A DNA stretch of 32,000 bases from Nostoc punctiforme PCC 73102 (GTDB taxonomy: Bacteria; Cyanobacteriota; Cyanobacteriia; Cyanobacteriales; Nostocaceae), in the NCBI RefSeq assembly GCF_000020025.1, contig NC_010628.1:7650001-7682000 (forward strand). Reading direction: 5' to 3'. Positions 2,059-19,048 of this stretch are shown in pieces (the first letter of the stretch is position 1; each line of letters begins with the position of its first letter). The notes below the pieces were generated by a model. The model was not told the DNA's origin, did not search any database, and worked only from the letters and a program-made list of their open reading frames with translations. The translations under genes and the position numbers were made by a program.

Positions 2059-2094
2059 GATTATATTATTAATTTTTTGATATTAACTGAAAAA

Positions 2095-4092
2095 ATGGAT
2101 TTTACTTTATCAAATGCGCCTGAATATGCGATCAAAAATATTGAGAGTTTACAACAAATATGGTTGGAAAGATGCGGTGCTATTGAAAACAACCAAAAAG
2201 GATCCTATAGTCGCCATTTATTATTAATTTTACACGATTTGCGTGAAGAGATACAGAATAATAAAAATAGATTTTCTCAAAATGCTTACGGAAAAAAGTT
2301 CTTTAAAATTCAATTTTCTACTTACTGTAGTTTTAAAAAAGAACAACTTGATGATCTAGACAGAATTAGACAAATCTGGACAAGAGAAGTAGATCGAGAA
2401 CTATATTTCATTACTGAAGCTTTATCCGACAATAAAAGTAAATTTGAATTAGAGGATATTTTAATATTAATTCAACGTATAGAAGAAAAAATAACGTCAG
2501 AAAATAGCTTGAGGCAAGTTATTAATATTTTATACCAAAAACTACTTGAAAAAGACTTAAATTCTAATCAGATAGAATTTATTGTAGATATAATAATTAT
2601 ATTATTTAATTCTAAGGGAATGTTGGAGTTAGAATCAATACTAAATCATCAATTTCAAAAATTTGAAGATATAGGAACAGATCCTGAGCAAGTCCATTTA
2701 TACCCTACCCTATTTGGCTCACCATCAAGAGATGCAAAATCAGTTGATGAACATAAGGAAGAACTTAGAACATATTATGATTCTTCAAGTATTAAACAGA
2801 GACTTAACTTTTTAAGAGAAATTTATTGTCTAGAGCCTCAAACTTATAAAGTTATTTTCAAGATAACAGGTGTGGAATTCAAAAACAAAATTAATATAGG
2901 CAAAGTTGAACTATATCGTCCTAAAATAGATGGAAAATACATTAAAAAAAATGAGATTATAAGCATAACTGTTGAAGATAAGTCAGATTACTGTGTTGCA
3001 GTGGATATCCGAGGTGTAGATAGTAAATTCATGAAAATTAAAGCCCAACAAATGGCTGAAAGAACAATAGCTGTTCTCTCAACACGAAAGAGGAAAGACC
3101 AGGCTATTATTTTATCAAGTGATTGGGTTATTTGTAATTCTCAAGGAGAAATTCGAGCTTTTAGCTTTAAAGGCAGGAATAAGCCAGACACTATTAGACA
3201 TAACTCTATTGACTCGCAAAATAATCACCAAAGGCTTGGTCAGTGGATATCTTCTGAAGATATATGTCATCCAACTGTAGCAAAATGGCTTGCTTCTACC
3301 GACTGGTATAGACGAGCAACTGAAGCTTCACAAAGCACTGAAGAAATATTAAATTCCTGGTTTGCTGTAGAAAAGTTTTCTGAAGATTCTAAAATAATTT
3401 CTAAAAAACTTCCTGAACTATCAGATGCTCTTAAGAATAAAAAGAAGATTCTTAAAGAAAATATAGATTTATGGCTTGATGGTGAAGGTATTAGAACAGT
3501 ACAGTTACTTCTTACTTTGAGTGAATTAAAATTTAATTTATATCATGAAGTAAGACAAGTTGGACGTATTTTTACGACACCTCTAACATTTCCTGAAATG
3601 GATATATCTAAGTCTATAGACCAGGATTTGCAAGACTATTTATCTGCTAATAAAGATAAAATAGATTTTTTAGAAAAATTTATAGAAAAAACTCCTGAAA
3701 TAAAGAAACAATTAGATTCTAAAAACATAGTGTTGCCAGATTTAAATAAAGTCAATGAAATTTTTTATAATAATGATTATTGTGAAAAATACTTGGTTGA
3801 TAAAATTATTGACCTCAAAGATGATGTTTATAACATCTATCGTATTCGCAATATGCTAGTTCATTCTAGTAGTACTACTAGTAAACTATTAGATTATTAT
3901 GCAAAACGTAGCCGAGAGTATTGTCACTCTTTGTTAGATGCCATTGCATATAAAATATATCAGACTTCTAACGATGATGAAATTATGCCTTTGGAGTTTT
4001 ATTTTAGAGAAATGGTAATTGATGCAAATATTGCTTTAGAGGCGGTAAAAGAAAATCAAATGGACAACTTTAGGAATTGGGCTTTATCGTAA
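2095..4092 (+). CDS. Large protein of unknown family with a C-terminal HEPN-like RNxxxH motif (665 aa from ATG 2095; the track starts at TTG 2077)
   Basis: This is a long uninterrupted ORF in very AT-rich DNA. Its C-terminal segment DDVYNIYRIRNMLVHSSSTTSKLLDYY contains R-N-M-L-V-H (nt 3847-3864). The rest is not recognisable to me. Confidence 0.7.
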   Translation: MDFTLSNAPEYAIKNIESLQQIWLERCGAIENNQKGSYSRHLLLILHDLREEIQNNKNRFSQNAYGKKFFKIQFSTYCSFKKEQLDDLDRIRQIWTREVDRELYFITEALSDNKSKFELEDILILIQRIEEKITSENSLRQVINILYQKLLEKDLNSNQIEFIVDIIIILFNSKGMLELESILNHQFQKFEDIGTDPEQVHLYPTLFGSPSRDAKSVDEHKEELRTYYDSSSIKQRLNFLREIYCLEPQTYKVIFKITGVEFKNKINIGKVELYRPKIDGKYIKKNEIISITVEDKSDYCVAVDIRGVDSKFMKIKAQQMAERTIAVLSTRKRKDQAIILSSDWVICNSQGEIRAFSFKGRNKPDTIRHNSIDSQNNHQRLGQWISSEDICHPTVAKWLASTDWYRRATEASQSTEEILNSWFAVEKFSEDSKIISKKLPELSDALKNKKKILKENIDLWLDGEGIRTVQLLLTLSELKFNLYHEVRQVGRIFTTPLTFPEMDISKSIDQDLQDYLSANKDKIDFLEKFIEKTPEIKKQLDSKNIVLPDLNKVNEIFYNNDYCEKYLVDKIIDLKDDVYNIYRIRNMLVHSSSTTSKLLDYYAKRSREYCHSLLDAIAYKIYQTSNDDEIMPLEFYFREMVIDANIALEAVKENQMDNFRNWALS

Positions 4093-4354: not shown

Positions 4355-6460
4355 TCAGGTAACACCAAAAACAATCACTAAGCCCAAAACCGCCCCAAAC
4401 ACAATCAAGGCATAGAATTGAGCGCGACCGTTTTCTAGGTACTTCAGACCTTCACCGCTAACAAGGGTGAAAAAGCCTGTGAGGTTAACAGCGCCATCAA
4501 CAACGCGGAAGTCAACTTCCATAACTTGTCTAGCTACGCGACGCAAGCCGAGGACAAAAACCCGATGGTAAATTTCATCAAAGTACCACTTGTTGAGGGA
4601 TAACTCGTAAAGTGGTTGGATTTTAGCAGCGATCGCAGCCGGATCAATTTTACGGCGCAAATACATCAGCGAAGCCAGGGTAATCGCAATTAAAGAAATT
4701 CCGACTGAAGCACCCGCCATGATGTAGAATTCCGTCGGATTGAACTCGGCAGCCTTTTCTATAACTTCGGAGAGAGTTTCGCTAGGAGGAAAGATAAACT
4801 CTTCAAAATAATTGGCGTAGGGAGTTCCCACCAAACCAATCAAAATCGAAGGCACAGCCAACAGTGCCAACGGCAGCGTCATTGTCCACGGCGATTCGTG
4901 GGGGGAGTCGCTGTGATGCCCGTGGGAGTCATGGGAATCATGATGCTGACTAGTTGCCGCCAATTCTCCTTTCTTCATCGCCCCAGGCCCAAAATTTGGG
5001 ACTGGTTCTTCTGACTCTAATTCCAGGACAATTGTCGCCGCAGCTTTCTTGAGTTTTTCCTTGATTTTCTCGTCAGTACCCCGGAATTTGCCTTCAAATG
5101 TCATGAAATACATTCTGAACATGTAGAAAGCAGTAATACCGGCAGTTAGCCAGCCAATCATCCAGAGAAGTGGGTTAGCCTCAAAAGCTTTCCCTAAAAT
5201 TTCATCTTTTGACCAGAAACCAGCAAAAGGTGGAATACCAGAAATTGCCAAGCAACCAATTAAGAAGGTAGTTGCTGTGACGGGCATGTATTTCCGTAGT
5301 CCACCCATCAAGCGCATATCTTGCGCTAAGGCGGGGTCGTGTCCAACGACACCTTCCATACCGTGAATTACGGAACCTGAACCCAAGAACAGCATCGCCT
5401 TAAAATAGGCGTGGGTCATTAGGTGGAATAGTCCAGCACTGTAGGAACCTATTCCCATTGCCATCACCATGTAACCGAGTTGGGAAATGGTGGAGTAAGC
5501 CAAGCCCTTTTTGATGTCGTTTTGGGTAATGGCAATGCTAGCCCCCAAAAACGCCGTAAACGCCCCAGTAAAGGCAATGACATTCATTGCGGCTGGAACG
5601 TCTTCAAATACTGGGTACATCCGGGCAATCAGGAAAACACCCGCCGCCACCATTGTTGCCGCGTGAATCAAGGCAGAAATGGGGGTGGGGCCTTCCATCG
5701 CATCTGGTAGCCAGACGTGGAGGGGGAATTGGGCTGATTTTGCTACTGGACCTAAGAAAACTAAAATCGCAAACAGGACAGCGAGAAAATTGCTGATCGA
5801 ACCTGATTCGACAAGTTGGGCGAGGCGATCGCCCATGATATTAAAATCAAAGCTTCCTGTTGCCCAGAACAGCCCCAAAATGCCGAGTAATAGACCAAAG
5901 TCGCCCACGCGGTTGGTCACAAACGCTTTTTGAGCGGCATCTGCTGCTGACTTGCGATCGTACCAAAAACCGACCAGCAAGTAGGAACACATCCCGACCA
6001 GTTCCCAGAATATGTAAATCTGTACTAGGTTGGGGCTGACCACCAGACCTAACATTGAAGAGCCAAATAAACTGAGATAGGCGTAAAATCTTACGTAACC
6101 GGGATCGTGAGCCATGTAGCCGTCGGTGTAAACCATGACTAAGCAGGCTACCGTTGTGACAATCACCAGCATTAGGGCTGTCAGGTGGTCAATAGTGTAG
6201 CCCATGCTCAGGTGAAAATTACCTGCTGCCGCCCACTCAAAGGTGCGAAGATAAGATGCATGTCCTTGAATTTGACTCCAGAGCAAGGCAAACGACATCC
6301 CCATAGCTGCTGCCATCATGGAGATAATCACCACAGCATTAAGCTGGCGCAGGCGGTTTGTCACCTGATTCAACGAGATTAACCCTAGACCGACCAGCAT
6401 TGCCCCGAGAAGAGGGAACACCGGAATCAGCCAGGCATACTGATAGATTACTTCCATCAC
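4355..6460 (-). CDS. ndhF: NAD(P)H-quinone oxidoreductase subunit 5 (NDH-1 NdhF1-type), 701 aa
   Basis: The translation has the NuoL/NdhF hallmarks (...WELVGMCSYLLVGFWY..., ...LPDAMEGPTPISALIHAATMVAAGVFL...). Its length and long C-terminal region fit NdhF1 rather than the shorter NdhF3/F4. Confidence 0.93.
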   Translation of the reverse strand: MMEVIYQYAWLIPVFPLLGAMLVGLGLISLNQVTNRLRQLNAVVIISMMAAAMGMSFALLWSQIQGHASYLRTFEWAAAGNFHLSMGYTIDHLTALMLVIVTTVACLVMVYTDGYMAHDPGYVRFYAYLSLFGSSMLGLVVSPNLVQIYIFWELVGMCSYLLVGFWYDRKSAADAAQKAFVTNRVGDFGLLLGILGLFWATGSFDFNIMGDRLAQLVESGSISNFLAVLFAILVFLGPVAKSAQFPLHVWLPDAMEGPTPISALIHAATMVAAGVFLIARMYPVFEDVPAAMNVIAFTGAFTAFLGASIAITQNDIKKGLAYSTISQLGYMVMAMGIGSYSAGLFHLMTHAYFKAMLFLGSGSVIHGMEGVVGHDPALAQDMRLMGGLRKYMPVTATTFLIGCLAISGIPPFAGFWSKDEILGKAFEANPLLWMIGWLTAGITAFYMFRMYFMTFEGKFRGTDEKIKEKLKKAAATIVLELESEEPVPNFGPGAMKKGELAATSQHHDSHDSHGHHSDSPHESPWTMTLPLALLAVPSILIGLVGTPYANYFEEFIFPPSETLSEVIEKAAEFNPTEFYIMAGASVGISLIAITLASLMYLRRKIDPAAIAAKIQPLYELSLNKWYFDEIYHRVFVLGLRRVARQVMEVDFRVVDGAVNLTGFFTLVSGEGLKYLENGRAQFYALIVFGAVLGLVIVFGVT

Positions 6461-6540
6461 TGACGCCTACTTTTAGAATTCTTGATTTAGCGTGTCGAAA
6501 CTGTTAATAATTGTGACACACACCCTTTAGGATAAAATAA

Positions 6541-6565
6541 CCCACCCAAGACTGATTGGGTGGGG
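6541..6565 (-). terminator. Rho-independent terminator downstream of trxC
   Basis: On the minus strand, CCCCACCCAA-TCAGTC-TTGGGTGGG is followed by TTATTTTATCC. Confidence 0.7.
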
Positions 6566-6585
6566 TGTTAAGCATGGTTTTATAT

Positions 6586-6613
6586 TTGGTCATTAGTCAT
6601 TAGTCATTAGTCC
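6586..6613. repeat. STRR2-type tandem heptamers (TTGGTCA TTAGTCA TTAGTCA TTAGTCC)
   Basis: Four contiguous 7-nt units read directly. They match the TT(G/T)GTCA STRR2 class described for Anabaena/Nostoc/Calothrix. Confidence 0.85.
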
Positions 6614-6655
6614 CATACCCAATGACCTATGCTCCATGCCCAATATCAATATTGA

Positions 6656-7042
6656 TTAAGCTGACCGACACTCTAAGTCCACTGTTTTTGGAGTATTGTA
6701 GATTTTCGCGTAATTGCTGTAGCTGGCTTTAATGTCTTCTAAAGCTAGACGTAAATCTTCTCTGCCGCGAAAGCCTTCCAAGCGATGGCGAACAGTGCCA
6801 TTTTGAATCAGTAGTAAAGTTGGCAGTGACTTTAGCCTATAAGTAGTAGACAATTTAAAATTTTGATCGGCGTTAACTCCAACTAATTTAATTTCGTCCC
6901 CACATTGGGCTTGAAATTGCAACAACAGTGGGTGGATAATCCGACACAAGCCACACCAAGGTGCTTCAAAGTTAACTAAAACAGGAATAGGTGATTCTAA
7001 AACTTCTTGAGTAAATGTCCGTTCACTAACCGACAACACCAT
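6656..7042 (-). CDS. trxC: Thioredoxin with an atypical WCGLC active site (TrxC-type)
   Basis: 128 aa with a thioredoxin-fold sequence. The active site reads FEAPWCGLCR instead of WCGPC, which is the signature of cyanobacterial TrxC. Confidence 0.85.
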   Translation of the reverse strand: MVLSVSERTFTQEVLESPIPVLVNFEAPWCGLCRIIHPLLLQFQAQCGDEIKLVGVNADQNFKLSTTYRLKSLPTLLLIQNGTVRHRLEGFRGREDLRLALEDIKASYSNYAKIYNTPKTVDLECRSA

Positions 7043-7205
7043 GACGCCTCTTGGATTATAAGGTTTTTATATCAAACTACCTATCAGTAATGAAGTGAAG
7101 GATTGGTAAGTCAGTAACTGCCGATAGATGCTTTCAGAAACCAAATCTCAGGACACAGAATAATTGGGCAAAAATTCAGCGTGTTGATGTGTCTCTGATG
7201 TAAAA

Positions 7206-7230
7206 AGCCACTGCGACTCTCACTGTGGCT
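7206..7230 (-). terminator. Hairpin flanked by A-run and T-run (potentially bidirectional), 227 nt downstream of the NnrU-family gene
   Basis: AAAAAGCCAC-tgcgactctcact-GTGGCTTTTT: a 6-bp GC-rich stem with U-runs on both strands. Confidence 0.6.
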
Positions 7231-7456
7231 TTTTCGGATGTTAGACTCCTGATTGCTTTGGCCGCCTGGGATTTGACTGAATCTGCCACTGACTCCCAAG
7301 GAAAGACAACGGGCCTTCAACTACCAATATAAAATCTTAAGCTGACTAAACGCACCCCCACTGATAGATGTTTGAATTTATCCTACATTGATTCGGGGCA
7401 ATTGATAAGCGGAAATTTCAATCTATTTAGGATTTTCTGCTGACACTGGGGATCGC

Positions 7457-8179
7457 TTAAATTTCCCATTTTATTCTACCAGTTGCTTCCATCAACAGAG
7501 GGTGCGACCACCAAAGCAAAGCGATAAAAATGGCAACTCCCAAATAGGAAGGGCGGAGAAATTCCTGCCATAAGATAGATTGACGGCCGTCAATAATTGC
7601 TTTAAAGGGAATAATTGAAGTTCGTTGTTTGGCAATTTCAAAGGCTTCCCCATAGCGATCGCTCAAACGGCGATCCCCGTGCCAAACCCCAAACAAGTGA
7701 TGCAACACCAATCCAATGGAAGTTACCAGGGTAAAGGTAGTACCCAGCCAGAGAGTATGGGCAACACACCAGATTATTTGTCCCACCATCTGGGGATGAC
7801 GGGTAATTCGAATAATTCCTGTTTCGTAGAGATGAACTTGGGGCTTTTGAATGGCAGCAATTTCTAGTAGATTGAAGGTAGCAGGATATAAAAACAAAAA
7901 CGAGATTGCTGACAGCAGCCAAACAAATTCTCGTACTCCTGGCACTCCTTGTACCTGCCAAAGTTGCAAACCATCATAGCGGTGCCCAAAAAAGTAAATA
8001 ATTAATATCACAGCCAACGGGAGGCTGACTAATGCAAAAAAAATGCGATAAAGCCTTGGGCCAATATATTTTTCGGCCCTTGGACGCAAAGCAGCGCCTC
8101 CACTGTGAGCGATCGCAAAAACTATTTGTAACCCCAGTATGACAAAATGACTGGGTGTCAACCAAGAAATCAGCAGCAT
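7457..8179 (-). CDS. NnrU-family integral membrane protein (Z-ISO-related family)
   Basis: 240 aa and polytopic. Motifs such as AIAHSGGAALRPR and ITRHPQMVGQIIWCVAHTLWLG resemble NnrU-family proteins. Confidence 0.75.
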   Translation of the reverse strand: MLLISWLTPSHFVILGLQIVFAIAHSGGAALRPRAEKYIGPRLYRIFFALVSLPLAVILIIYFFGHRYDGLQLWQVQGVPGVREFVWLLSAISFLFLYPATFNLLEIAAIQKPQVHLYETGIIRITRHPQMVGQIIWCVAHTLWLGTTFTLVTSIGLVLHHLFGVWHGDRRLSDRYGEAFEIAKQRTSIIPFKAIIDGRQSILWQEFLRPSYLGVAIFIALLWWSHPLLMEATGRIKWEI

Positions 8180-8391
8180 ATAGACGGGTGAAGTAATTTA
8201 AAGAAAATTGAATTCAGTACAACCAATACCACAAAGTATTCCAAAGGAGACTTTAGTCAAGATGTTGTGCTACTGTCCTTTTCGAGTCAAGTCTTCAAGT
8301 TTAATATGCAACAAATCATACGCGGCTGATTGCTGCCAAAGTTTATTTGTTGTGTGCATCCGCTCCTTTCAATGTTTGTGGGTTGAGCCTT

Positions 8392-9405
8392 ATGTCTGAC
8401 CTTCCTTTCACTTTAGATCAGTTACGGATTTTAAAAGCGATCGCACAAGAAGGAAGCTTCAAGCGTGCCGCCGATAGTCTTTATGTCTCCCAGCCTGCCG
8501 TCAGCTTACAAGTCCAAAATCTCGAACGGCAGCTAGATGTCCCTTTATTCGACCGTGGAGGAAGACGTGCCCAATTAACTGAAGCAGGACATCTACTCCT
8601 AAATTACGGTGAGAAAATCCTCAGTCTGTGTCAAGAAACCTGCCGCGCCATTGAGGATTTACAAAATCTCCAAGGCGGTACGTTAATTGTCGGTGCTTCT
8701 CAAACCACTGGCACTTATCTTTTGCCTAGAATGATCGGAATGTTCCGACAAAAATATCCAGATGTGGCAGTGCAATTACACGTCCACTCTACTCGGCGGA
8801 CTGCTTGGAGTGTAGCTAACGGACAAGTTGATCTGGCAATAATCGGCGGTGAAATTCCTGGTGAACTATCAGAATCTTTGGAAGTTCTTTCTTACGCAGA
8901 AGATGAACTAGCGCTGATTTTACCTGTCTTTCACCCCTTTGCCAAACTTGAAACAATCCAAAAAGAAGACCTATATAAATTACAATTCATTGCCTTAGAT
9001 TCCCAATCGACCATCCGCAAAGTCATCGATCAAGTGCTAGGACGTTGTGAAATTGATACCAGACGTTTTAAGGTTGAAATGGAACTAAATTCCATTGAAG
9101 CAATTAAGAATGCTGTGCAATCTGGTTTAGGGGCTGCTTTTGTTTCAACAAGTGCGATCGCTAAAGAGTTACAAATGGGTGTTCTGCACCGTACCCCTAT
9201 TGAAGGGGTAGTCGTCAAACGGACGCTATGGTTGATTTTTAATCCTAATCGCTATAGATCCAAGGCCGCAGAAGCCTTTAGTCAAGAAATTTTGCCCCAG
9301 TTTGCTAACCCTGGATGGAGTCAAGATGTGTTAAAATTGGCACAAAAAAACATCGTGGTAAGTACATTGGATATAGCAATACCCGCCTCCTCTGGCGAAG
9401 ACTAA
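8392..9405 (+). CDS. rbcR: LysR-type transcriptional regulator, RbcR/Ycf30-like (337 aa from ATG 8392)
   Basis: The N-terminus [55 protein letters not shown] is almost the canonical Ycf30/RbcR helix-turn-helix. The track start at 8347 is a TTG, 15 codons upstream. Confidence 0.88.
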
Positions 9406-9520
9406 AATCTAGTTACTCAATTTTAAATTTAAGATTTTGGATTGATTCCATAGGAAAAGTGGGGCTTGAGATCATGAAATTAGTTGATTCATCTCTACGA
9501 TTTAATTCAAGGGTATAAAG

Positions 9521-9584
9521 CCAATTTTTTAGATTTTGGATGGGAAATTTTTCCTTAAATCCAAAATCTAAAATCTAAAATTGG
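9521..9584 (+). terminator. Imperfect hairpin built from TTTTAGA/TCTAAAA heptamers, downstream of rbcR
   Basis: ccaattttttagattttggat ... atccaaaatctaaaatctaaaattgg; the arms are complementary apart from one extra heptamer. Confidence 0.55.
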
Positions 9585-9623
9585 TAAGGTTATTAGTTTT
9601 TTGTTTTTTGTAAATGATCAATA

Positions 9624-9660
9624 CTTCTCTACGAGACGCTACGCGAACGATTACGCTCAG
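9624..9660. repeat. Second copy of the dispersed repeat seen at 1521-1560
   Basis: cttctctacgagacgctacgcgaacgattacgctcag aligns with 1521-1560. Confidence 0.55.
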
Positions 9661-9688
9661 TACAAGTGAATAATGACTAATCACGAAA

Positions 9689-11089
9689 ATGGAAGTTTAC
9701 TGTACTCGTCCACGTTGCCCACGCCCACAAAACTATTTTGCTGATTTAGATGATATTACAACCCTAAAAACAACGCAGCAAAAATACTGTACTACCTGTG
9801 GTATGCCACTACTGCTAGATGGTCGGTATGTGCCAACGAAGTTGCTGGGAAGGGGTGGATTTGGAGCAGCATTTTTGGCACGCGATCGCCGAATCCCAGG
9901 AATGCGTCAATGCGTGGTTAAGCAGTTTCAACCAGTGGGTAATTTAACCTCAACTCAACTGCAACAAGCACAGATAATGTTCGAGAGAGAGGCAGACGTT
10001 CTAGCACAACTTGGTAACGATCACGAACAAATTCCTGACTTGTTTGCCTTCTTCCCAGTGATAGTTAATAGTTCGCAATCAGGACAGGAAGACCAATTTT
10101 TTTACTTAGTACAAGAATATATTGATGGGCAAAATTTAGAAGAAGAATTAGTTCAACAAGGCAAATTTTCTGAACACCAAGTCTTAGAGGTGTTGCAAGA
10201 AATCCTGAAGGTGCTAAAGTTTGTCCACGAACGAGGCATTATCCACAGAGATATTAAACCCTCTAACATCATGCGCCGTCGTGATGGTAAGCTTTTTTTA
10301 CTAGATTTTGGCGCAGTTAAGCAAGTAACAAATGTTGCACTTGGTTCTGCTGCTTCTTCCACAGGAATTTATTCTATGGGATTTGCACCGCCGGAACAGA
10401 TGGCTGGGGGGCAAGTATTCCCATCTACAGACTTATACGCTTTAGCTGTAACTCTTATTACCTTGTTGACTAATCAGGAAGCAATTCAATTATTTGATGC
10501 CTATAGCAACCAGTGGAAATGGCGTGAGCAAGTAAATGTCAATTCTCGCCTTGCTGACATTTTAGATAAGATGCTGTTACCTGCTGCTAATCAGCGGTTT
10601 CAATCGGCACAGGAAGTTCTAGATGCACTTTACTCGCAGCCTCTAGCCGCTACACAGCTTAATTCACCTTCTGTAACACTTCCACCACAATCACCTAAAA
10701 GTTCTAATCCCGTCGTCTCCCAACCTCCACCAACTCAACCAGCGTTTTCTACAGTAGAATTGTTGGGTGGGGCGGCATTTAGTGGATTTGAAGGGGCATT
10801 GATAGCGATCGCCCTCTTCAGTTTAGTACAATCACCAATAGTTACTTTAAGCGTTGCATGTGTAATTTTGGGGATACTGGTATTTGCCCAAACTAGACGA
10901 TGGATTGAAAAGTTCGATTTATTAATTATTCCAACAATTACTTTTGCGATTATTTTTTTCATTCCCTTTTTACAAGGGGGTCTTGGCATTCAGGCAGTGG
11001 TCATTTTATCAGTTGCAGCAGCATTGGTAGCCATTTCACTGACAGCCATATTTCGGCTTATTTATAAATTATTATCTCTCATCCTTTAA
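9689..11089 (+). CDS. Membrane Ser/Thr protein kinase with an N-terminal 4-Cys (zinc-ribbon-like) prefix and a C-terminal multi-TM region
   Basis: The Cys pairs are CTRPRC...CTTCG. Hanks motifs are present: GRGGFGAAF, VVKQF (Lys), HRDIKPSN, DFG and APPE. A Pro/Ser-rich linker is followed by about four hydrophobic helices to the C-terminus. Confidence 0.9.
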   Translation: MEVYCTRPRCPRPQNYFADLDDITTLKTTQQKYCTTCGMPLLLDGRYVPTKLLGRGGFGAAFLARDRRIPGMRQCVVKQFQPVGNLTSTQLQQAQIMFEREADVLAQLGNDHEQIPDLFAFFPVIVNSSQSGQEDQFFYLVQEYIDGQNLEEELVQQGKFSEHQVLEVLQEILKVLKFVHERGIIHRDIKPSNIMRRRDGKLFLLDFGAVKQVTNVALGSAASSTGIYSMGFAPPEQMAGGQVFPSTDLYALAVTLITLLTNQEAIQLFDAYSNQWKWREQVNVNSRLADILDKMLLPAANQRFQSAQEVLDALYSQPLAATQLNSPSVTLPPQSPKSSNPVVSQPPPTQPAFSTVELLGGAAFSGFEGALIAIALFSLVQSPIVTLSVACVILGILVFAQTRRWIEKFDLLIIPTITFAIIFFIPFLQGGLGIQAVVILSVAAALVAISLTAIFRLIYKLLSLIL

Positions 11090-11116
11090 AAAGCTTCTGA
11101 TGCTAATAGTCACATA

Positions 11117-12163
11117 ATGTCTCAGAAAAACGAAACACTTAGTCTTTTCTTAGCTGTTGTTATCACCATTGGCTTAATCTTTAGTGGCTTATGGTTTTTT
11201 ATGGAACGGTGGGCACAACTAAATGGAACTGCTGCTAAATCTTCGGGGACTAACAATACAGATAATCCGATAAACCAGTTTATTAGTAGTAAATGTAACG
11301 TGCCCAACCTCTTAGAAGGGACATTCAACTATGGTGGTAGCACAACTTGGGCACCCATTCGTAAAGATGTAGACTCCGTACTAGAAAGCCAGTGCCCTCG
11401 GTTTATTTTACGTTACACTCAACCTCCATCAGGTAATGCAGGATCTGGAACTGGGATTCGGATGTTGATAGACAATCAACTAGCTTTTTCTCAATCTTCT
11501 CGTTCAGTAAAGGCTGAAGAAAATGCCGAAGCTCAACAAAAAGGATTTAGTTTGAAAGAAATTCCAGTAGCGATTGATGGAATTGCGATCGCTGTCAATC
11601 ACGATCTCAACATCCCTGGTTTAACTGTGGCTCAACTCAAAGACATCTACACAGGCAAAATTACTAATTGGCAACAGGTGGGTGGGTCAAATTTACCAAT
11701 TAAAGCTTACTCTCGTAGCGAAGAAGCTGGGGGTACAGTAGAATTCTTTGTCGAAAATGTTCTAAATAAAGAAAAGTTTGGTGCCAATATTAATTATGTT
11801 GGCACGACCACTGAAGCAGTACGAAAAGTAGCTGCAAATCCTGGGGGAATTTATTATGCTTCTGCCCCAGAAGTTGTACCTCAGTGTATTATTAAAACCA
11901 TACCACTGGGACGCACAAGCAGTCAATTAGTGCCTCCTTACCAACAACCGTTTGTATCTCCATCTCAATGTCCCAGTAAACGCAATCAATTGAATAGTCA
12001 GGCATTTCGTAGTGGAGATTATGCAATTACTCGCAATTTATTTGTAATTATTAAACAGAATGGTCAAACAGATCAGCAAGCTGGCGAAGCTTATGCAAAT
12101 TGGCTTCTGACACCTCAGAGTCAAGACCTGATTGAAAAGGCTGGATTTGTCAAAATTAAATGA
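11117..12163 (+). CDS. Membrane-anchored PstS-like (PBP type 2) solute-binding protein, paralog 1
   Basis: 348 aa, starting MSQKNET plus a TM helix. PstS-family-like segments follow (FNYGGSTTWAPIR, GSGTGI, AFSQSSR, IAIAVN, QLKDIYTGKITNWQQVGG). No pstCAB genes lie nearby. Confidence 0.8.
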   Translation: MSQKNETLSLFLAVVITIGLIFSGLWFFMERWAQLNGTAAKSSGTNNTDNPINQFISSKCNVPNLLEGTFNYGGSTTWAPIRKDVDSVLESQCPRFILRYTQPPSGNAGSGTGIRMLIDNQLAFSQSSRSVKAEENAEAQQKGFSLKEIPVAIDGIAIAVNHDLNIPGLTVAQLKDIYTGKITNWQQVGGSNLPIKAYSRSEEAGGTVEFFVENVLNKEKFGANINYVGTTTEAVRKVAANPGGIYYASAPEVVPQCIIKTIPLGRTSSQLVPPYQQPFVSPSQCPSKRNQLNSQAFRSGDYAITRNLFVIIKQNGQTDQQAGEAYANWLLTPQSQDLIEKAGFVKIK

Positions 12164-12220
12164 TCAAAGCAGTTAGATTTAGCCAAATAATAAACATTTT
12201 TATTTTATTAAAATCTGTTC

Positions 12221-13621
12221 ATGTCACAAAAGAATGAAACCGCAGTTTTAACCTTGGCTCTGTTGCTGACAGTTGGAATAGTTGGCGGTGGTGTGTGGTG
12301 GTTTACTAATGGCTCTGGAGCCAAAATAGGTAATACCCTCATTCCAGGTTCAGAAGCAGGCAAAAATCCATCCCTACAAGATCGGATTAGTTTTGGAGAC
12401 AAAACTTTGACTCCAGGTGCGGTTTCTGCTGCAAAAAAAGAAGGAGTCCAGGCGATCGCTGCTAAAAGTTATGATAAAGCGATCGCTAATTTCACAGACT
12501 CCCTCAAACTCAACCGTAACGATCCAGAAGCGCTGATCTTTCTTAATAACGCCCGCATCGGATCTTCCAAGAGTTACACCATTGTAGCTTCTGTACCAGT
12601 AGGGACTGATCCCAATGCTGCTTTAGAAATTTTGCGTGGCATTGCCCAAGCACAAAATGAAATTAATACCTCTGGAGGAGTCAAAGGAGTACCGTTAAGG
12701 GTAGGGATAGCTAACGATGATGACAATCCAGAAATAGCCAAGCAAATCGCTTCCAACCTAGTCAGTAATTCAGAAGTATTAGGTATAGTTGGGCCTAATA
12801 CTAGCGATTCCACCTTAGCCGCCGGTACTATTTATACTTCAGGACAACTTGTAGCAATTTCCCCTACCAGTACATCTGTAAAAATTTCTAACTTTAGCCG
12901 CTACGTTTTTCGCACGGTTCCCAGTGATTTTATGGCTGCTAGAAGTCTAGCCAACTATATGGTGAGAACCTTGCAGAAAAAAAATGCAGTGATTTTCTTT
13001 AATTCGCAAAGCAACTATAGCCAGTCTTTAAAGTCTGAGTTTGTTTCATCTGTTTCTTTAGAAGGTGGACAGGTATCCAGCGAATTTGACTTATCCAAGG
13101 CGGATTTTAGTACAGCTAAAAGTGTAGAACAAGCAACTAAGCAAGGTGCAGAAGTGTTGATGTTAGCTGCTAACACTGAAACTCTCGATAAAGCGCTGCA
13201 AGTAATTCAGATTAACCAAAAAAAGTTAACTCTGTTAGCGGGAGATGATGTTTATACCGCCAAAACTTTAGAGATTGGTAGAGAACAAGCTGTGGGGATG
13301 GTGGTGGCAGTTCCCTGGCATATTGACGGCGATCCTAAGTCAGATTTTCCCCAGAAATCGCGGCAGCTATGGGGCGGTGATGTGAGTTGGCGAAGCGCTC
13401 TCAGCTATGATGCTACAGTGGCTTTGATTGCCGCATTAAAACGCAATCCCACACGTTCTGGAGTTCAACAAGCACTCTTTTCCTCTGACTTTTCTGCCAC
13501 CGGCGCTTCTGGTACAATTCGGTTTTTAGCATCAGGCGATCGCAATGCGCCAGTCCAACTTGTAAAAATTGTTCCTGGTTCTCGCTCTCGCACTGGTTAT
13601 GACTTTGAGCCAGTGCGTTAA
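12221..13621 (+). CDS. Membrane-anchored type 1 periplasmic-binding protein (LivK/ANF-receptor-like) with a TPR-like N-terminal motif
   Basis: 466 aa, starting MSQKNET plus a TM helix. A TPR-like segment (AAKSYDKAIANFTDSLKLNRNDPEALIFLNNARI) precedes a branched-chain-amino-acid-binding-protein-like body (GIVGPNTSDSTLAAG..., FRTVPSD...). Confidence 0.75.
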   Translation: MSQKNETAVLTLALLLTVGIVGGGVWWFTNGSGAKIGNTLIPGSEAGKNPSLQDRISFGDKTLTPGAVSAAKKEGVQAIAAKSYDKAIANFTDSLKLNRNDPEALIFLNNARIGSSKSYTIVASVPVGTDPNAALEILRGIAQAQNEINTSGGVKGVPLRVGIANDDDNPEIAKQIASNLVSNSEVLGIVGPNTSDSTLAAGTIYTSGQLVAISPTSTSVKISNFSRYVFRTVPSDFMAARSLANYMVRTLQKKNAVIFFNSQSNYSQSLKSEFVSSVSLEGGQVSSEFDLSKADFSTAKSVEQATKQGAEVLMLAANTETLDKALQVIQINQKKLTLLAGDDVYTAKTLEIGREQAVGMVVAVPWHIDGDPKSDFPQKSRQLWGGDVSWRSALSYDATVALIAALKRNPTRSGVQQALFSSDFSATGASGTIRFLASGDRNAPVQLVKIVPGSRSRTGYDFEPVR

Positions 13622-13909
13622 TCAGCAATAAAAAATTAAAAATTAACCAATAGTTAACCTAAAAAAGCTCTCAAGATGAGAAATTGAGCTTTATAGGGAA
13701 CAATATTAACGCCAACTAACAATTTATGACTTACAGAGAAGTAACAAATAATTCAAAGCAAATTTACTATATCTAGAACCCTAAGTAATTCAGAAGTTAG
13801 GATTTGTCATAATTCACTAACAAAATACCCGTTCGCCAAATACAATCTCAAGTAGCAAGCACCTATTAAGTTAAGCACTTATATTGAATGGACGTGCGGG
13901 TAATTTACT

Positions 13910-14956
13910 ATGTCTCAAAAAAATGAAACAACTATTCTTGTTTTATCCATCCTAATCACAGCCGGGTTAATAGCTGGCGGTTTTTGGTGGTTTAGTAGAA
14001 GGTCTGGTGTTAACCTAAATTCAATTAATTCTGATGGCACTAAAACACCCCAGGCTGTATTAGAACAACCTAGTGGCAAGACTTTCGCCTCAATACAAGA
14101 TGTTCCTACAGGGTTATTCAATTATGGAGGTAGTACATCTTGGGCACCGATTCGCTTGGTAGTTGATTCACCAATTCAAGCGGCGCGACCAGAGTTTCGG
14201 CTGCGTTATGTAGAACCCAGTAATGCATCTCCTGGAACTGGTACTGGCATCCAGTCACTGATAGACGGTCAGCTAGCCTTTGCCCAGTCTTCCCGACCAC
14301 TTCTCGATCAGGAATTAAGCCGCGCCCAGCAGCGTGGATTCAGTTTGAAACAAATTCCTGTAGCTATTGATGGTTTAGCAGTCGCAGTTAACCCCAACCT
14401 CAAAATCTCAGGACTGACTGTAGACCAATTAAAGTCAATTTACACAGGCAAAATCAATAATTGGAGCCAGGTGGGTGGCCCCAATATCCCGATTAAGCCC
14501 TATTCTCGCCGCATTGCTGATGGCGGTACTGTAGAGCTTTTTGTCCAAGACATCTTGGGTGGTCAAGCTTTTAGCCCCAATGTGGAATTTGTCTCCACAA
14601 CCACCCAAGCCTTGCAAAAATTGGCTGGTAGTTCTGGTGGTATTTACTACGCTTCTGCCCCAGAAGTGATTCCTCAATGTTCAATCAAACCCTTACCGTT
14701 GGGGCGAGCACAAGGGCAATATATTGCTCCTTACCAAGAAACATTTGTCCTCCCGTCTGAATGTCCTGGTAAACGGAACAAATTGAATATTGAGGCTTTC
14801 CAATCAGGAAAATACCCGATTACCCGAAATCTGTTTGTGGTGGTCAAACAGAATGGTCAGACTGAGCAGCAAGCAGGTGTCGCTTACGCCAACTTACTGC
14901 TGACTGAGCAGGGACAGGAATTGATTACCCAAGCTGGATTTGTCAAAATTCGCTGA
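13910..14956 (+). CDS. Membrane-anchored PstS-like solute-binding protein, paralog 2
   Basis: 348 aa, colinear with and clearly paralogous to 11117-12163 (FNYGGSTSWAPIR ... FVKIR), with the same MSQKNET plus TM start. Confidence 0.8.
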   Translation: MSQKNETTILVLSILITAGLIAGGFWWFSRRSGVNLNSINSDGTKTPQAVLEQPSGKTFASIQDVPTGLFNYGGSTSWAPIRLVVDSPIQAARPEFRLRYVEPSNASPGTGTGIQSLIDGQLAFAQSSRPLLDQELSRAQQRGFSLKQIPVAIDGLAVAVNPNLKISGLTVDQLKSIYTGKINNWSQVGGPNIPIKPYSRRIADGGTVELFVQDILGGQAFSPNVEFVSTTTQALQKLAGSSGGIYYASAPEVIPQCSIKPLPLGRAQGQYIAPYQETFVLPSECPGKRNKLNIEAFQSGKYPITRNLFVVVKQNGQTEQQAGVAYANLLLTEQGQELITQAGFVKIR

Positions 14957-14977
14957 CACCTGCGATTACACTCAGGC

Positions 14978-15000
14978 AGAGTGGCGGAAATCGCCGCTCT
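14978..15000. terminator. Hairpin between convergent genes
   Basis: AGAGTGGCG-gaaat-CGCCGCTCT: a 9-bp stem with one G-U pair. The flanking U-runs are weak. Confidence 0.45.
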
Positions 15001-15010
15001 GAACTCTGCT

Positions 15011-15730
15011 TTAACCAGCTCTATTAATCGATTCTGCTGGTAAACAAATTAAATTATCCCCTTGGGTGAGGATTAAGCCGCGTTGACGCAGCTTACCCAT
15101 CAAGCGGGTGACGGTGACACGGGTCGAACCAATCGCGCTACCAATTTGGGCATGGGTGAGGGGGAAAGGCAGACAATAGCCGCGAATCACATCAGGATCG
15201 GTGTCGCTCATTGCTGGCTCTCCATATTCCTCAATTAACAATGTGAGAAATCCTAAGAGTCGATCAATTGTACGGCGTTGTCCCAAGGCACTCAGCCACA
15301 GCAGCTTACGCTGGTGCTGATACCTAAAGGCATCCATAACTTCACGACGGAAGTGAGGCCAGTTGTCTAGGTCATGCCAGTACATCCACAGCACCGCAGT
15401 TTGGTCAACATGGGCGTAAGCCTGGAGTGTAAATGGCGACTGAGCAACAATTTCAAATGGCTGTCCCGCTCCCACAAAACCCAAGAACGCTTCTTCTGGG
15501 GTTCTGTTAATTCGTCGAGACGTTAGCTGACTAGCTGTTGCACTAACTTGGGCAGTTCCTACCATGCGGATCGCACCCCTTTGCACCAAATATAGCAATC
15601 CAGGCCGGGCTGGAATGCGCTCATCTTTGCTAAAGGTACGGCATCGATAGTGTTCTTGAGCCCAGTCAAGAATTCGTTGCCAAGTTAAAAAAGGCCGTGA
15701 TGCCTCAGAAAAGGAGGATGGAGATTGCAT
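15011..15730 (-). CDS. Crp/Fnr-family transcriptional regulator (239 aa from ATG 15730)
   Basis: The C-terminal helix-turn-helix reads LTHAQIGSAIGSTRVTVTRLMGKLRQRGLI, and a cNMP-binding-like fold lies upstream. The track start at 15838 is a TTG, 36 codons further upstream. Confidence 0.8.
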   Translation of the reverse strand: MQSPSSFSEASRPFLTWQRILDWAQEHYRCRTFSKDERIPARPGLLYLVQRGAIRMVGTAQVSATASQLTSRRINRTPEEAFLGFVGAGQPFEIVAQSPFTLQAYAHVDQTAVLWMYWHDLDNWPHFRREVMDAFRYQHQRKLLWLSALGQRRTIDRLLGFLTLLIEEYGEPAMSDTDPDVIRGYCLPFPLTHAQIGSAIGSTRVTVTRLMGKLRQRGLILTQGDNLICLPAESINRAG

Positions 15731-16041
15731 AGGTAACAAAGAGCGTTCGGCTGAAGACAAAGACGTGATCAAAAGGTGCAAGGAGTGTCTTTGTGTTGAC
15801 GAGGCAGGCTTAACGCCTAACAGCGCCAGCCAATCCAAAGAATAGAAAGCAAATTACTCTCTACTCTTTTGTTATACTTCCTACTGTACAATGATGGTAG
15901 TAAAGTTTACTTACTATTCATCGATTATTCATCAAATTTTATCCTCTTCTCATTTTTCTTCATCTAAATTAAATTTATACCGCAAGATAGATGACAGAAA
16001 AGTAACAAATATATCTTACATGACTGTTTAAATAATATTAC

Positions 16042-16989
16042 GTGCATTATAAATTACCAGTTAGCAACTATAAGTCAATCAAGCGGTTATTGTACAGTTA
16101 TTTAATAAAATCACTAAGCATTGATACTTATAACACAGAAAATAAATGCATAAAAGATAAAAAAATTCCTCTACATAAAGATAGAGATGTAAATAGAGTT
16201 TTATATACCTCAAGTGTGTCTCTGCAACTGTCAAAATCTCAGAATCGAAAACCTATGGAGCTTGCTAGTGCGATCGCATCTGATTTATCAAGGACTTGTG
16301 GTGACGTTTTTAGAATCCAAATTGTTCCTCCTGGCTGGATACATTTTGAATTGACTCACTTGACCTTAGCGACTTGGTTACAAAGTCTTGCAGTCGGGAG
16401 TTTGGGGGAAGAGGGGGAGATGGGGAGCAGGAAGCAGGGAGCAGGGGGGAAAGAGGTAATTTTTAATTCTCCCCCTTGCCCCCTGCCCCTTGACCCTCTG
16501 TCTTTTGTGCCCAATGCCCAATCCCCAATCCCCAATTCACTATTTGCTGTTCAGCACGCCCATGCACGTTGCTGTTCGCTGGTATTGCTGGCTCACCGAG
16601 AGGGATTGATTAAACTTAAACAACCTGTTACAAATACTAGTCAAGGTTTTTGGGATGTTATTTCTCCTAACCCTCTACCTTGGCTCAACTGTGACGCAAC
16701 ATTACGGCTAAATCATCCAGGTGAGCGTCGTTTAATTGCCGAGTTAATACAAGTAGTAGACAACATAGAGTCCCCTGATATTAAGGGTTCTGTGAAATGG
16801 GAAAAATTAGCGCTGAATTTGAGTCAAGCTTTTGAACACTTCTGGTCTAATTGCCGGATTTGGGGCGAGGTGAAAGCTATATTACCAGAGTTAGCCCAAG
16901 CCAGACTCGGATTACTTATGGCTACTCAGTCAGTATTAAGATATGTACTAGAGGAAAAGTTGGGTGTTTTTGCGCCCTTGGAGTTATAA
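16042..16989 (+). CDS. Arginyl-tRNA-synthetase-like paralog lacking the catalytic core (N-terminal ArgRS-like segment plus DALR anticodon-binding-like domain)
   Basis: YTSSVSLQLSKSQNRKPMELASAIASDL resembles the ArgRS N-domain, and FAVQHAHARCCSLVLLAHREG resembles the DALR-domain YAHAR motif. At 315 aa it has no Rossmann-fold core. The start is GTG; the first in-frame ATG is at 16255. Confidence 0.6.
   Translation: MHYKLPVSNYKSIKRLLYSYLIKSLSIDTYNTENKCIKDKKIPLHKDRDVNRVLYTSSVSLQLSKSQNRKPMELASAIASDLSRTCGDVFRIQIVPPGWIHFELTHLTLATWLQSLAVGSLGEEGEMGSRKQGAGGKEVIFNSPPCPLPLDPLSFVPNAQSPIPNSLFAVQHAHARCCSLVLLAHREGLIKLKQPVTNTSQGFWDVISPNPLPWLNCDATLRLNHPGERRLIAELIQVVDNIESPDIKGSVKWEKLALNLSQAFEHFWSNCRIWGEVKAILPELAQARLGLLMATQSVLRYVLEEKLGVFAPLEL
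16396..16536. repeat. Repeat block inside the coding sequence: G-rich arm, AT loop, C-rich arm, then four STRR1-type heptamers ((G/C)CCCAAT)
   Basis: The G-rich arm at 16396-16456 and the C-rich arm at 16469-16500 are partly complementary. 16509-16536 reads GCCCAAT GCCCAAT CCCCAAT CCCCAAT. With my boundaries the block is 141 nt, a multiple of 3. Confidence 0.6.
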
Positions 16990-18313: not shown

Positions 18314-19048
18314 CTATGAATTTGACCCTTTGAGCCAGCTTTTTTTGCGTTGTGACAACAGACAAAGCCCAGCAATTAAACCAATTCCAAGTGTGGCAGA
18401 GGGTTCGGGTACTGATTTAATATCATAGTTATAGGTTAATTTGATACCTGCTTTGGCATAAGTATCAATATAGGAGCTAATGTTGCCCGATCCTTTAACT
18501 TCTGAGTCGGCTATAGCTGAGAACAAAAAGTCTACGTTGCCATTGCCAATAAAAGACTGCAATAATTGCGTATCAGTGAAAGACTGGATACCAGATTGTG
18601 TAGCAGTTAAGTTAGAAAGAGTCTTTCCAGATGTGCCACCATAATCACTGATGCCATCATATTTGGCAACTTGGTAACTAGAAGTATATTGTGGATTCAG
18701 TTCCAACAAAGACTGATTATTTAGTTTTAAGCTTAATTGACTGCCAAGATTTACTGTGGCTTGTCTTGCGTTTGGACTTCTATTTTCAAAACCTGCATTT
18801 CCAAGTATGTCGCCAGTAAATTCTATTGTTATGCCTTGGAGTGTGCCTAGAGATGAGTTAAATTTTTGGACGCTCAAAGGTGAGTCAATGATATCTGTAA
18901 ACTCGTAATTAGTGGAAGTACTGTACGAGAGAGAAGCTGCATTAGCTGCTCCAGATGTTACAACAATACCTGCCAAAGTTGTAGCAGCAGCTAAAGTGTT
19001 CAATAGTTTTGTTGTCATAATGGAGGATACTTTTCTAAAACGAATCAT
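18314..19048 (-). CDS. Secreted PEP-CTERM sorting-domain protein
   Basis: An N-terminal signal peptide (...LAGIVVTSGAANA) is present. The C-terminus reads VPEPSATLGIGLIAGLCLLSQRKKS, i.e. PEP motif, TM helix and basic tail. An alternative ATG lies at 19018. Confidence 0.8.
   Translation of the reverse strand: MIRFRKVSSIMTTKLLNTLAAATTLAGIVVTSGAANAASLSYSTSTNYEFTDIIDSPLSVQKFNSSLGTLQGITIEFTGDILGNAGFENRSPNARQATVNLGSQLSLKLNNQSLLELNPQYTSSYQVAKYDGISDYGGTSGKTLSNLTATQSGIQSFTDTQLLQSFIGNGNVDFLFSAIADSEVKGSGNISSYIDTYAKAGIKLTYNYDIKSVPEPSATLGIGLIAGLCLLSQRKKSWLKGSNS

Follow-up and report, generated by a model that had tools for sequence, protein, structure and literature searches.

A conserved N-terminal tail and transmembrane helix on cyanobacterial binding proteins as a possible docking module for a neighbouring Ser/Thr kinase

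To our knowledge, the activators of bacterial Hanks-type kinases are largely unknown, and the kinases of cyanobacteria are especially poorly understood. According to a review from 2021, the GlnH/GlnX/PknG system is the only characterised case in which a Ser/Thr kinase is stimulated by a solute-binding protein (SBP) (PMC8050422). In this system, which occurs in Actinobacteria such as Corynebacterium and Mycobacterium, GlnH is free or lipid-anchored and binds to the large periplasmic four-helix-bundle domains of a separate protein, GlnX, whereas PknG itself is soluble. A periplasmic SBP also acts as the ligand-recognition subunit of some sensor histidine kinases and chemoreceptors, namely in LuxP-LuxQ, TorT-TorS, ChvE-VirA and MBP-Tar, where the SBP genes lie beside signalling genes instead of transporter genes (PMC8050422) and where the SBP contacts a periplasmic sensor domain. 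Here we describe an operon-like gene row in Nostoc punctiforme PCC 73102, present in a stretch of 32,000 nucleotides (NC_010628.1, positions 7,650,001 to 7,682,000, forward strand; the whole stretch is called the window below), in which a Ser/Thr kinase gene is followed by three genes, A, B and C, for binding proteins that all start with the tail MSQKNET and a transmembrane (TM) helix. We propose, as one possible explanation, that this tail-plus-helix module docks the binding proteins onto the kinase.

The arrangement resembles that of GlnH-GlnX-PknG, in that an SBP would feed a Hanks-type kinase via a four-helix membrane element and in that the genes are clustered. It differs in that the kinase itself contains the four helices, which lack a periplasmic domain, in that the SBPs bring a conserved TM helix of their own, and in that one kinase can be joined by as many as four SBPs that differ in fold. 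No GlnX-like gene is present in the operon or among its conserved neighbours. The system is functionally similar to SBP-dependent signalling as in GlnH/GlnX/PknG, LuxPQ and TorTS, but it is not a member of the GlnH/GlnX/PknG system. The features of the operon are the following.

9689..11089, + strand: Ser/Thr protein kinase gene, 466 aa, an open reading frame (ORF) with a 4-Cys prefix, a Hanks kinase domain, a Pro-rich linker and a C-terminal four-TM domain
10745..11086, + strand: kinase C-terminal membrane domain, residues 353-466 (hydropathy, conservation)
11117..11200, + strand: tail-plus-helix module of gene A, MSQKNETLSLFLAVVITIGLIFSGLWFF (translation, pattern match, conservation)
11117..12163, + strand: gene A, PstS-like membrane-anchored binding protein, 348 aa (Pfam PBP_like_2)
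12221..12304, + strand: tail-plus-helix module of gene B, MSQKNETAVLTLALLLTVGIVGGGVWWF (translation, pattern match)
12221..13621, + strand: gene B, LivK-like (type I) membrane-anchored binding protein, 466 aa (Peripla_BP_6)
13910..13993, + strand: tail-plus-helix module of gene C, MSQKNETTILVLSILITAGLIAGGFWWF (translation, pattern match)
13910..14956, + strand: gene C, PstS-like membrane-anchored binding protein, 348 aa, paralogue of A (PBP_like_2)

The row on the + strand starts with the kinase and continues with A (27 nt past the kinase stop), B (after 57 nt) and C (after 288 nt); the kinase membrane domain and anchor A are in the same reading frame. In all three binding proteins MSQKNET is followed by a hydrophobic stretch (window positions 11117, 12221 and 13910). 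An initial annotation, made from the letters alone, had quoted these three starts and their DNA, and both the ORFs and the DNA strings proved to be correct. The degenerate DNA pattern ATGTCNCARAARAAYGARAC has exactly three matches in the 32 kb, which are the three gene starts, whereas 0.00 are expected on the basis of 100 shuffles. The annotation had also noted synonymous differences between the copies and had taken these as a sign of selection at the peptide level and not of recent gene conversion. This view is borne out: within the first 28 positions, the codons of identical residues that can be encoded in more than one way differ at 10 of 13 positions between A and B, 6 of 15 between A and C, and 8 of 14 between B and C, and at least 48 distinct 21-nt versions encode MSQKNET across at least 138 genomic copies. 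Since codons differ at identical residues, recent gene conversion is excluded and the similarity is kept at the protein level.

The heptapeptide had been described as a tail that sits, with a similar anchor, on three otherwise different proteins. Heptapeptide and anchor are indeed shared by all three, but the conserved unit is larger and comprises the whole tail plus helix of about 28 residues, with K4, E6, L10, a mid-membrane T17, G19xxxG23 and W26-W27-F28 as its main features; L10, T17, G19, G24 and W26 match the tail in degree of conservation. Likewise, B has another fold and is unrelated to both other proteins, but A and C are paralogues with 59% identity over 311 residues. In the sequences following the helix (FFMERWAQ, WWFTNGSG and WWFSRRSG), inspection revealed no lipobox and no small-x-small (AxA-type) cleavage site in A, B or C. 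No Pfam or NCBIfam model covers the module.

A genome scan with the DNA pattern, covering one genome per prokaryotic species, yielded at least 154 matches in at least 120 loci, and at least 139 of these matches encode MSQKNET with a TM helix. Among the matches listed, those with a helix are nearly all cyanobacterial (Nostocales, Oscillatoriales, Microcystis, Leptolyngbya-like, Chroococcidiopsis) and occur on PstS-like or LivK-like proteins, with one in a metagenome-assembled genome (MAG) labelled Sericytochromatia, while the 15 without a helix are scattered chance hits, mostly in other phyla. Conservation among the same matches extends beyond the heptapeptide, with L10 in 100% and T17 in 99% of the cases, and G19, G24, W26, W27 and F28 strongly conserved. 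A set that is independent of the motif was composed of 113 unique tails from loci retrieved via the kinase membrane domain. In this set the most constrained positions are E6 (97%), L10 (97%) and T17 (96%), followed by W26 (90%), K4 (89%, plus R in 5%), S2 (88%, also A, T, K and F), T7 (88%, with I in 9%, also A and S), N5 (85%, with K in 14%), G19 (81%) and Q3 (75%). Variants of the tail include MAQKNET, MTQKNET, MSQRNET, MSKKNET, MSQKKET, MSQKNDT and MSQKNEI, the last being the reading of a whole Nostoc clade, and tails with insertions, such as MSQKHQANET, retain (N/K)ET beside the helix.

Inside a given protein class, anchor and folded domain show about the same degree of conservation, and between classes with unrelated ectodomains the identity of the anchor is 53-62%, as compared to 20-35% for the linker (residues 29-70). 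Conservation along the helix is periodic, with a moment that peaks at 103 degrees per residue (7.08, versus a permutation mean of 3.99; p=0.019, which is only moderately significant), a conserved face formed by positions 9/13/16/17/20/24/27 and a variable face formed by 8/11/15/18/22/25/29. The G19xxxG23 element is a small-xxx-small motif. This one-sided conservation, together with the invariant mid-membrane Thr, suggests that the helix faces a protein partner rather than lipid. In some Nostoc loci, apparently decaying copies of the module that are truncated just past the anchor lie between intact neighbours (73 aa in L019, 51 aa in L062, 46 aa in L131).

How specific the module is follows from a search of a 32-position profile against 1.84 billion representative proteins (E<=0.001), which gave 132 matches, almost all of them N-terminal. 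With so few matches in so large a set the module is not a generic signal anchor. A generic anchor on many proteins unrelated to kinases was what the initial annotation had named as refuting its finding; such widespread occurrence was not observed, and 71 of 80 kinase loci carry the module directly downstream. Those longer profile hits and divergent locus proteins that were scanned carry PBP_like_2, Peripla_BP_6 or, in two cases, WD40 domains. The WD40 proteins are seven-bladed beta-propellers preceded by MSQKNET or MAQKNET and the helix (L083:4238-5290 and protein P0106), and they represent a third unrelated ectodomain type beside the two unrelated binding-protein folds, PBP_like_2 and Peripla_BP_6, that had been recognised in the window. 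The WD40 gene of L083 is located amid transposase fragments, and the four-TM kinase is not nearby. In a shorter PstS-like subfamily of 305-325 aa (Microcystis, Rippkaea, Crocosphaera and others), the module is present in 118 of 120 homologues.

The linkage between module and kinase was established in two directions. A tabulation of domain types and neighbouring kinases around the motif, as had been suggested earlier, gave PstS-like, LivK-like and WD40 proteins, and the same kinase was found directly upstream on the same strand in 56-57 of the 104-108 motif-anchored 8-kb loci listed; many of the loci without kinase are simply cut off by the locus edge. In the reverse test, a metagenome scan with an alignment of the kinase membrane domain only, 80 loci were obtained, and in 71 of these the kinase is followed, on the same strand, by one to four module genes. 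Among the nine loci without a module gene, five end at a contig edge and L169 continues for only about 650 nt past the kinase. The gap between the kinase stop and the first module gene is mostly 11-38 nt. In the 44 loci with enough downstream sequence, one module gene is present in 15, two in 14 and three in 15, in varying combinations, and L190 has four. No ABC (ATP-binding cassette) permease or ATPase genes were found around the operon in the window or among the conserved neighbours of 41 long related loci.

The kinase gene directly upstream (9689-11089), of which the adjacency had been correctly pointed out, encodes a Pkinase domain (PF00069, E=1.7e-34, residues 49-312) in which the motifs GRGGFG, VVK, HRDIKPSN and DFG can be read in translation. 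Judged from its sequence, the protein is a Hanks-type (eukaryote-like) Ser/Thr kinase with a complete catalytic domain. The latter is preceded by a 4-Cys prefix (NF045510, 4Cys_prefix_kin, residues 4-41, window 9698-9811) with two CxxC-like pairs, which is probably a zinc ribbon. At the C-terminus there are four hydrophobic segments, at about residues 358-380, 382-400, 411-429 and 437-455, with outer loops of only about 3-5 residues. In view of these minute loops and since no domain follows the four segments, the kinase is devoid of an ectodomain, and it differs from receptor-type kinases such as PknB and PknD, which have a single TM segment and a fused extracytoplasmic sensor such as PASTA domains or a beta-propeller. 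Any contact with an SBP would thus have to occur within or at the membrane. The membrane domain is conserved across 125 unique kinases; positions conserved in at least 95% include F353, E357, F364, G366, Q401, R404, E407, D410, T452, F455, L457 and Y459, and conserved sequence elements are seen in the first helix as GAAF(S/T)GFEG, in the cytoplasmic loop as AQxRRWIEKxDL and at the C-terminus as TAxFRLIYKLLS. It is covered by no Pfam or NCBIfam model. Fusions of kinase and SBP were not found in 200 loci, where every kinase ORF ends with ...LIYKLLS..., and tail variants, when compared by eye with the kinase loop and C-terminus, gave no convincing covariation among independent pairs that are too few in number.

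Regarding the ectodomains, genes A and C match PBP_like_2 (E=3.9e-34, residues 69-332, and E=3.9e-28, respectively). Their scores with TIGR02136 (151.8 and 149.2 bits) are below the cut-off of 206.6, and those with TIGR00975 are 38-40 bits against a cut-off of 205. Despite these sub-cut-off PstS scores, A and C keep the G-S-T, S-R and R...(S/G)-G-T columns, and G74-S75-T76, S128-R129, R200 and G206-T207 are conserved in an alignment of 45 relatives. The AlphaFold2 model of C (predicted local distance difference test, pLDDT, 83.8) has a helix at residues 6-32, a disordered tether at 33-57 and a folded domain of the PstS type at 68-346, with a TM-score up to 0.90 on the target in comparisons with PstS structures. 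The closest solved structure is that of Sll0540 from Synechocystis PCC 6803 (PDB 9l8j; sequence E=5.6e-22, Foldseek E=1.7e-22, 32% identity), followed by phosphate-bound PstS; the crystallised construct of Sll0540 lacks the N-terminus, and the likeness to C covers the ectodomain. The hydropathy profile of A shows one hydrophobic segment, which is N-terminal.

Gene B matches Peripla_BP_6 (E=5.4e-34, residues 138-448) and has distant matches of the LIVBP type in the PDB; its score with the LivK model PRK15404 is 63 bits, against a cut-off of 477. The AlphaFold2 model, which is of low confidence (pLDDT 53) and too poor for a fold search, displays a helix at residues 6-30 and a disordered stretch at 31-49. 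Between tether and binding domain, at about residues 51-112 of gene B (12371-12556), members of the LivK type share a conserved RISFG(E/D)K motif. Three short helices of B (70-80, 84-97 and 102-113, pLDDT about 78-89) are TPR-like in appearance, although a Pfam TPR match is lacking. A search with full-length B returned close Nostoc relatives (at least 77% identity) alone, and this search is uninformative on kinase-SBP fusions. The number of Cys residues is 2 or 4 in 143 of 149 PstS-like ectodomains, whereas LivK-like domains have none or one. An even number fits with disulfides formed outside the cytoplasm and, together with the binding-protein folds, it suggests a periplasmic location of the ectodomains.

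The module and its conservation, the small number of ectodomain types, the two-way linkage, the kinase without ectodomain and the absence of transporter genes nearby are directly observed, and from these we infer, with what we would call an even chance of being right, a split and modular receptor Ser/Thr kinase. The MSQKNET tail and TM helix would then be a dedicated, uncleaved anchor and docking helix for the kinase encoded just upstream. The anchor may insert with its N-terminus in the cytoplasm, so that a disordered tether of about 25-40 residues would hold the binding domain in the periplasm. The conserved anchor face (A/S13, T17, L20, G24 and W27, with G19xxxG23) would pack against the kinase helices, with TM1 and its GAAF(S/T)GFEG element as the candidate partner, and the juxtamembrane residues K4 and E6 might meet either QxRRWIEKxD, in the likewise conserved cytoplasmic loop, or FRLIYKLL at the C-terminus of the kinase. 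When a ligand closes the binding domain, this change could be relayed to the kinase domain, and one to four different binding subunits per kinase would provide several inputs, probably phosphate-like oxyanions and an amino-acid-like ligand. Of the functions proposed in the initial annotation, that of a docking tag or dedicated anchoring signal is the one that fits best. Short-tailed single-pass ligand binders whose link to a signalling partner depends on GxxxG or polar contacts between TM helices are well known from the plant receptor-like proteins (RLPs) with SOBIR1/BAK1 and from the immunoreceptors with DAP12/CD3. The proposed coupling recalls these eukaryotic complexes by mechanism only, as they are unrelated in sequence.

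A number of observations weigh against docking. What points to a contact between anchor and kinase is genetic linkage and patterns of conservation, and the helical periodicity is of the moderate significance given above. The charge bias around the helix is ambiguous: the tail has a net charge of about 0, to which the N-terminus adds, and residues 29-43 sum to about +1, with R/K immediately following the helix. It is thus the nature of the ectodomains that speaks for an N-in topology. The kinases of L140, L143 and L178 have no downstream module genes and are true exceptions. Conversely, no kinase is nearby in about 16 motif-anchored loci for which 3.5 kb or more of upstream sequence is available (Microcystis, Microcoleus and several marine or Oscillatorian MAGs, the WD40 case included), and in Rippkaea orientalis PCC 8801 (L201:10001-10960) and Chroococcopsis (L203:10001-11002) the gene stands alone in the 10 kb to either side. 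Finally, the synteny sample is dominated by Nostocales.

The alternative that survives best is that the module is a lineage-specific signal for membrane targeting or retention, for example for the plasma membrane versus the thylakoid or for a dedicated insertion or processing route, with SBPs that work with distant ABC transporters or alone and with the kinase as a co-regulated neighbour that makes no contact. We consider this unlikely. The N-terminal position and the shape of a signal anchor agree with it, and so does the annotation of module proteins, by annotators, as ABC transporter substrate-binding proteins. It is well known that ABC importers of Gram-positive bacteria and archaea can have TM-anchored SBPs, where an N-terminal TM helix, or fusion to the permease, holds the SBP at the membrane much as would be the case here; such anchors are, however, not conserved as a sequence module across folds, and their genes sit together with permease and ATPase genes. 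Solitary copies with no kinase within 4-10 kb, as found in Microcystis, Rippkaea, Chroococcopsis and Microcoleus, also favour a targeting role. The shorter PstS-like gene is solitary in the unicellular Chroococcales loci examined, including Microcystis L038:3206-4174, where neither kinase nor ABC genes occur up to 10 kb away, and the small ORFs that follow the solitary copies of Microcystis, Rippkaea and Chroococcopsis are mutually unrelated. On the other hand, the Microcoleus locus L051 has a kinase with a module gene, which indicates that unlinked copies can coexist with the kinase in one lineage. Furthermore, a signal for targeting should be carried by cargo of diverse kinds, which is difficult to reconcile with the 132 profile matches and their restriction, in the longer proteins scanned, to three domain types. 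It would also leave unexplained the module genes immediately downstream in 71 of 80 kinase-anchored loci, the one-sided helix conservation with its invariant Thr, and the conserved neighbourhood in the 41 long loci, in which permeases, ATPases and candidate processing enzymes are all lacking.

A second alternative, which had been put forward in the initial annotation, is that the heptapeptide mainly serves as a target that the neighbouring kinase phosphorylates at Ser2 and/or Thr7. This might, for instance, help to recruit an FHA protein or to regulate the binding protein. Such a role could coexist with docking, but we regard it as improbable, and as the cause of conservation it is weakened by the tails themselves. 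Although S2 and T7 are each present in about 88% of the 113 tails, this is less than the constraint on E6, L10 and T17, and T7 is Ile in 9% (the MSQKNEI clade of Nostoc) and Ala in others, while S2 can be replaced by A, T, P, K or N. Phosphorylation also fails to explain the constraint on K4, E6, L10 and T17 and a helix that is as conserved as the tail. T7 may nonetheless be phosphorylated in the majority of the proteins. The position of the genes directly after the kinase would suit a substrate, and the kinase domain, being on a long Pro-rich linker, could reach the membrane face. FHA domains bind phosphothreonine, and in two Microcoleus loci (L026:3355-6066, - strand, and L005) two FHA-domain genes (171 and 696 aa) are divergent from an unlinked module gene of the LivK type; these neighbours are absent from the other Microcoleus loci examined. 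Literature text searches for MSQKNET and SQKNET gave no paper with the peptide.

It is very improbable that the Gly-rich helix (G19, G22-G24) is cut within the membrane in a regulated manner, for instance by a protease of the rhomboid type, so as to set free the binding domain or the tail. Helix-destabilising Gly residues are typical of intramembrane protease substrates and are conserved inside this helix, but helix packing accounts at least as well for the G19xxxG23 spacing and the single conserved face, no protease gene is among the conserved neighbours in the 41 long loci, and there is no signal-peptidase or lipobox motif past the helix. An origin of the similarity in recent duplication or gene conversion between adjacent genes, as the tandem genes and the paralogy of A and C might suggest, is refuted by the codon differences, by the preservation of the module across cyanobacterial orders and on unrelated ectodomains, and by its presence downstream in 71 of 80 kinase loci.

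The operon is flanked by two regulator genes, which are given for context only.

8347..9405, + strand: LysR-family regulator gene (Pfam HTH_1 and LysR_substrate)
15011..15838, - strand: Crp/Fnr-family regulator gene, convergent with the operon (HTH_Crp_2, Crp)

In the 41 long related loci the conserved neighbours are a LysR regulator, NnrU, thioredoxin, NdhF and a Crp-family regulator, the LysR gene being present in 41 of 41 and the Crp/Fnr-family gene in 34 of 41. These loci are mostly from Nostocales, so the wider synteny may reflect relatedness only. In the window, the LysR gene immediately precedes the kinase and is oriented divergently to a cluster of NnrU, thioredoxin and NdhF genes (4355-8179, - strand). 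The Crp/Fnr-family regulator (15011-15838, - strand) has a weak match with PtrA, a phosphate-stress regulator (76 bits versus a cut-off of 300). The spacer before gene C (13622-13909, 288 nt) is AT-rich, has no Rfam match and contains one promoter-like site (13817-13846), and gene C may have its own promoter; in a scan of 9300-15200, promoter and terminator sites were no more frequent than in shuffles. The whole window is without Rfam or tRNA matches. Other genes in the window include a 315-aa ORF (16042-16989, + strand) with only a weak match to the DALR anticodon-binding domain, which is a conserved neighbour in 29 of 41 loci, a 671-aa ORF without Pfam match (2077-4092, + strand), and a 244-aa protein without Pfam match (18314-19048, - strand) that ends with VPEPSATLGIGLIAGLCLLSQRKK, a PEP-CTERM-like sorting tail.

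Sll0540, the closest solved structural relative of gene C and the 'fourth PstS' of Synechocystis, lies apart from the pst genes; it is reported to bind phosphate weakly and to show little response to phosphate limitation, has no known function and is regarded in the literature as a vestigial transporter component instead of a sensor (PMC13614923). Co-induction of sll0540 and slr1225 (spkF) by ethanol, seen in one RNA-seq table, was set aside as anecdotal and of uncertain orthology.

If docking is correct, candidate ligand sensors can be named for a kinase that is conserved across filamentous cyanobacteria, and the low-affinity PstS-like proteins that are regarded as vestigial (PMC13614923) would acquire a testable function. 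It would be only the second kind of pathway from an SBP to a Ser/Thr kinase, after GlnH/GlnX/PknG, with coupling by helix-helix contact in the membrane instead of via a periplasmic sensor domain, and the anchor and its counterpart would provide a short, transplantable TM plug-and-socket pair for rewiring inputs. In a wider sense, and here we are more tentative, as we give it somewhat less than an even chance, split receptor Ser/Thr kinases may be widespread in cyanobacteria: a sensor-less kinase with a four-helix socket would take up to four interchangeable single-pass subunits (PstS-like, LivK-like or WD40) by means of a 28-residue plug and so integrate nutrient signals such as phosphate, amino-acid or nitrogen status, and orphan proteins such as Sll0540 would be sensors and not vestigial parts of transporters.

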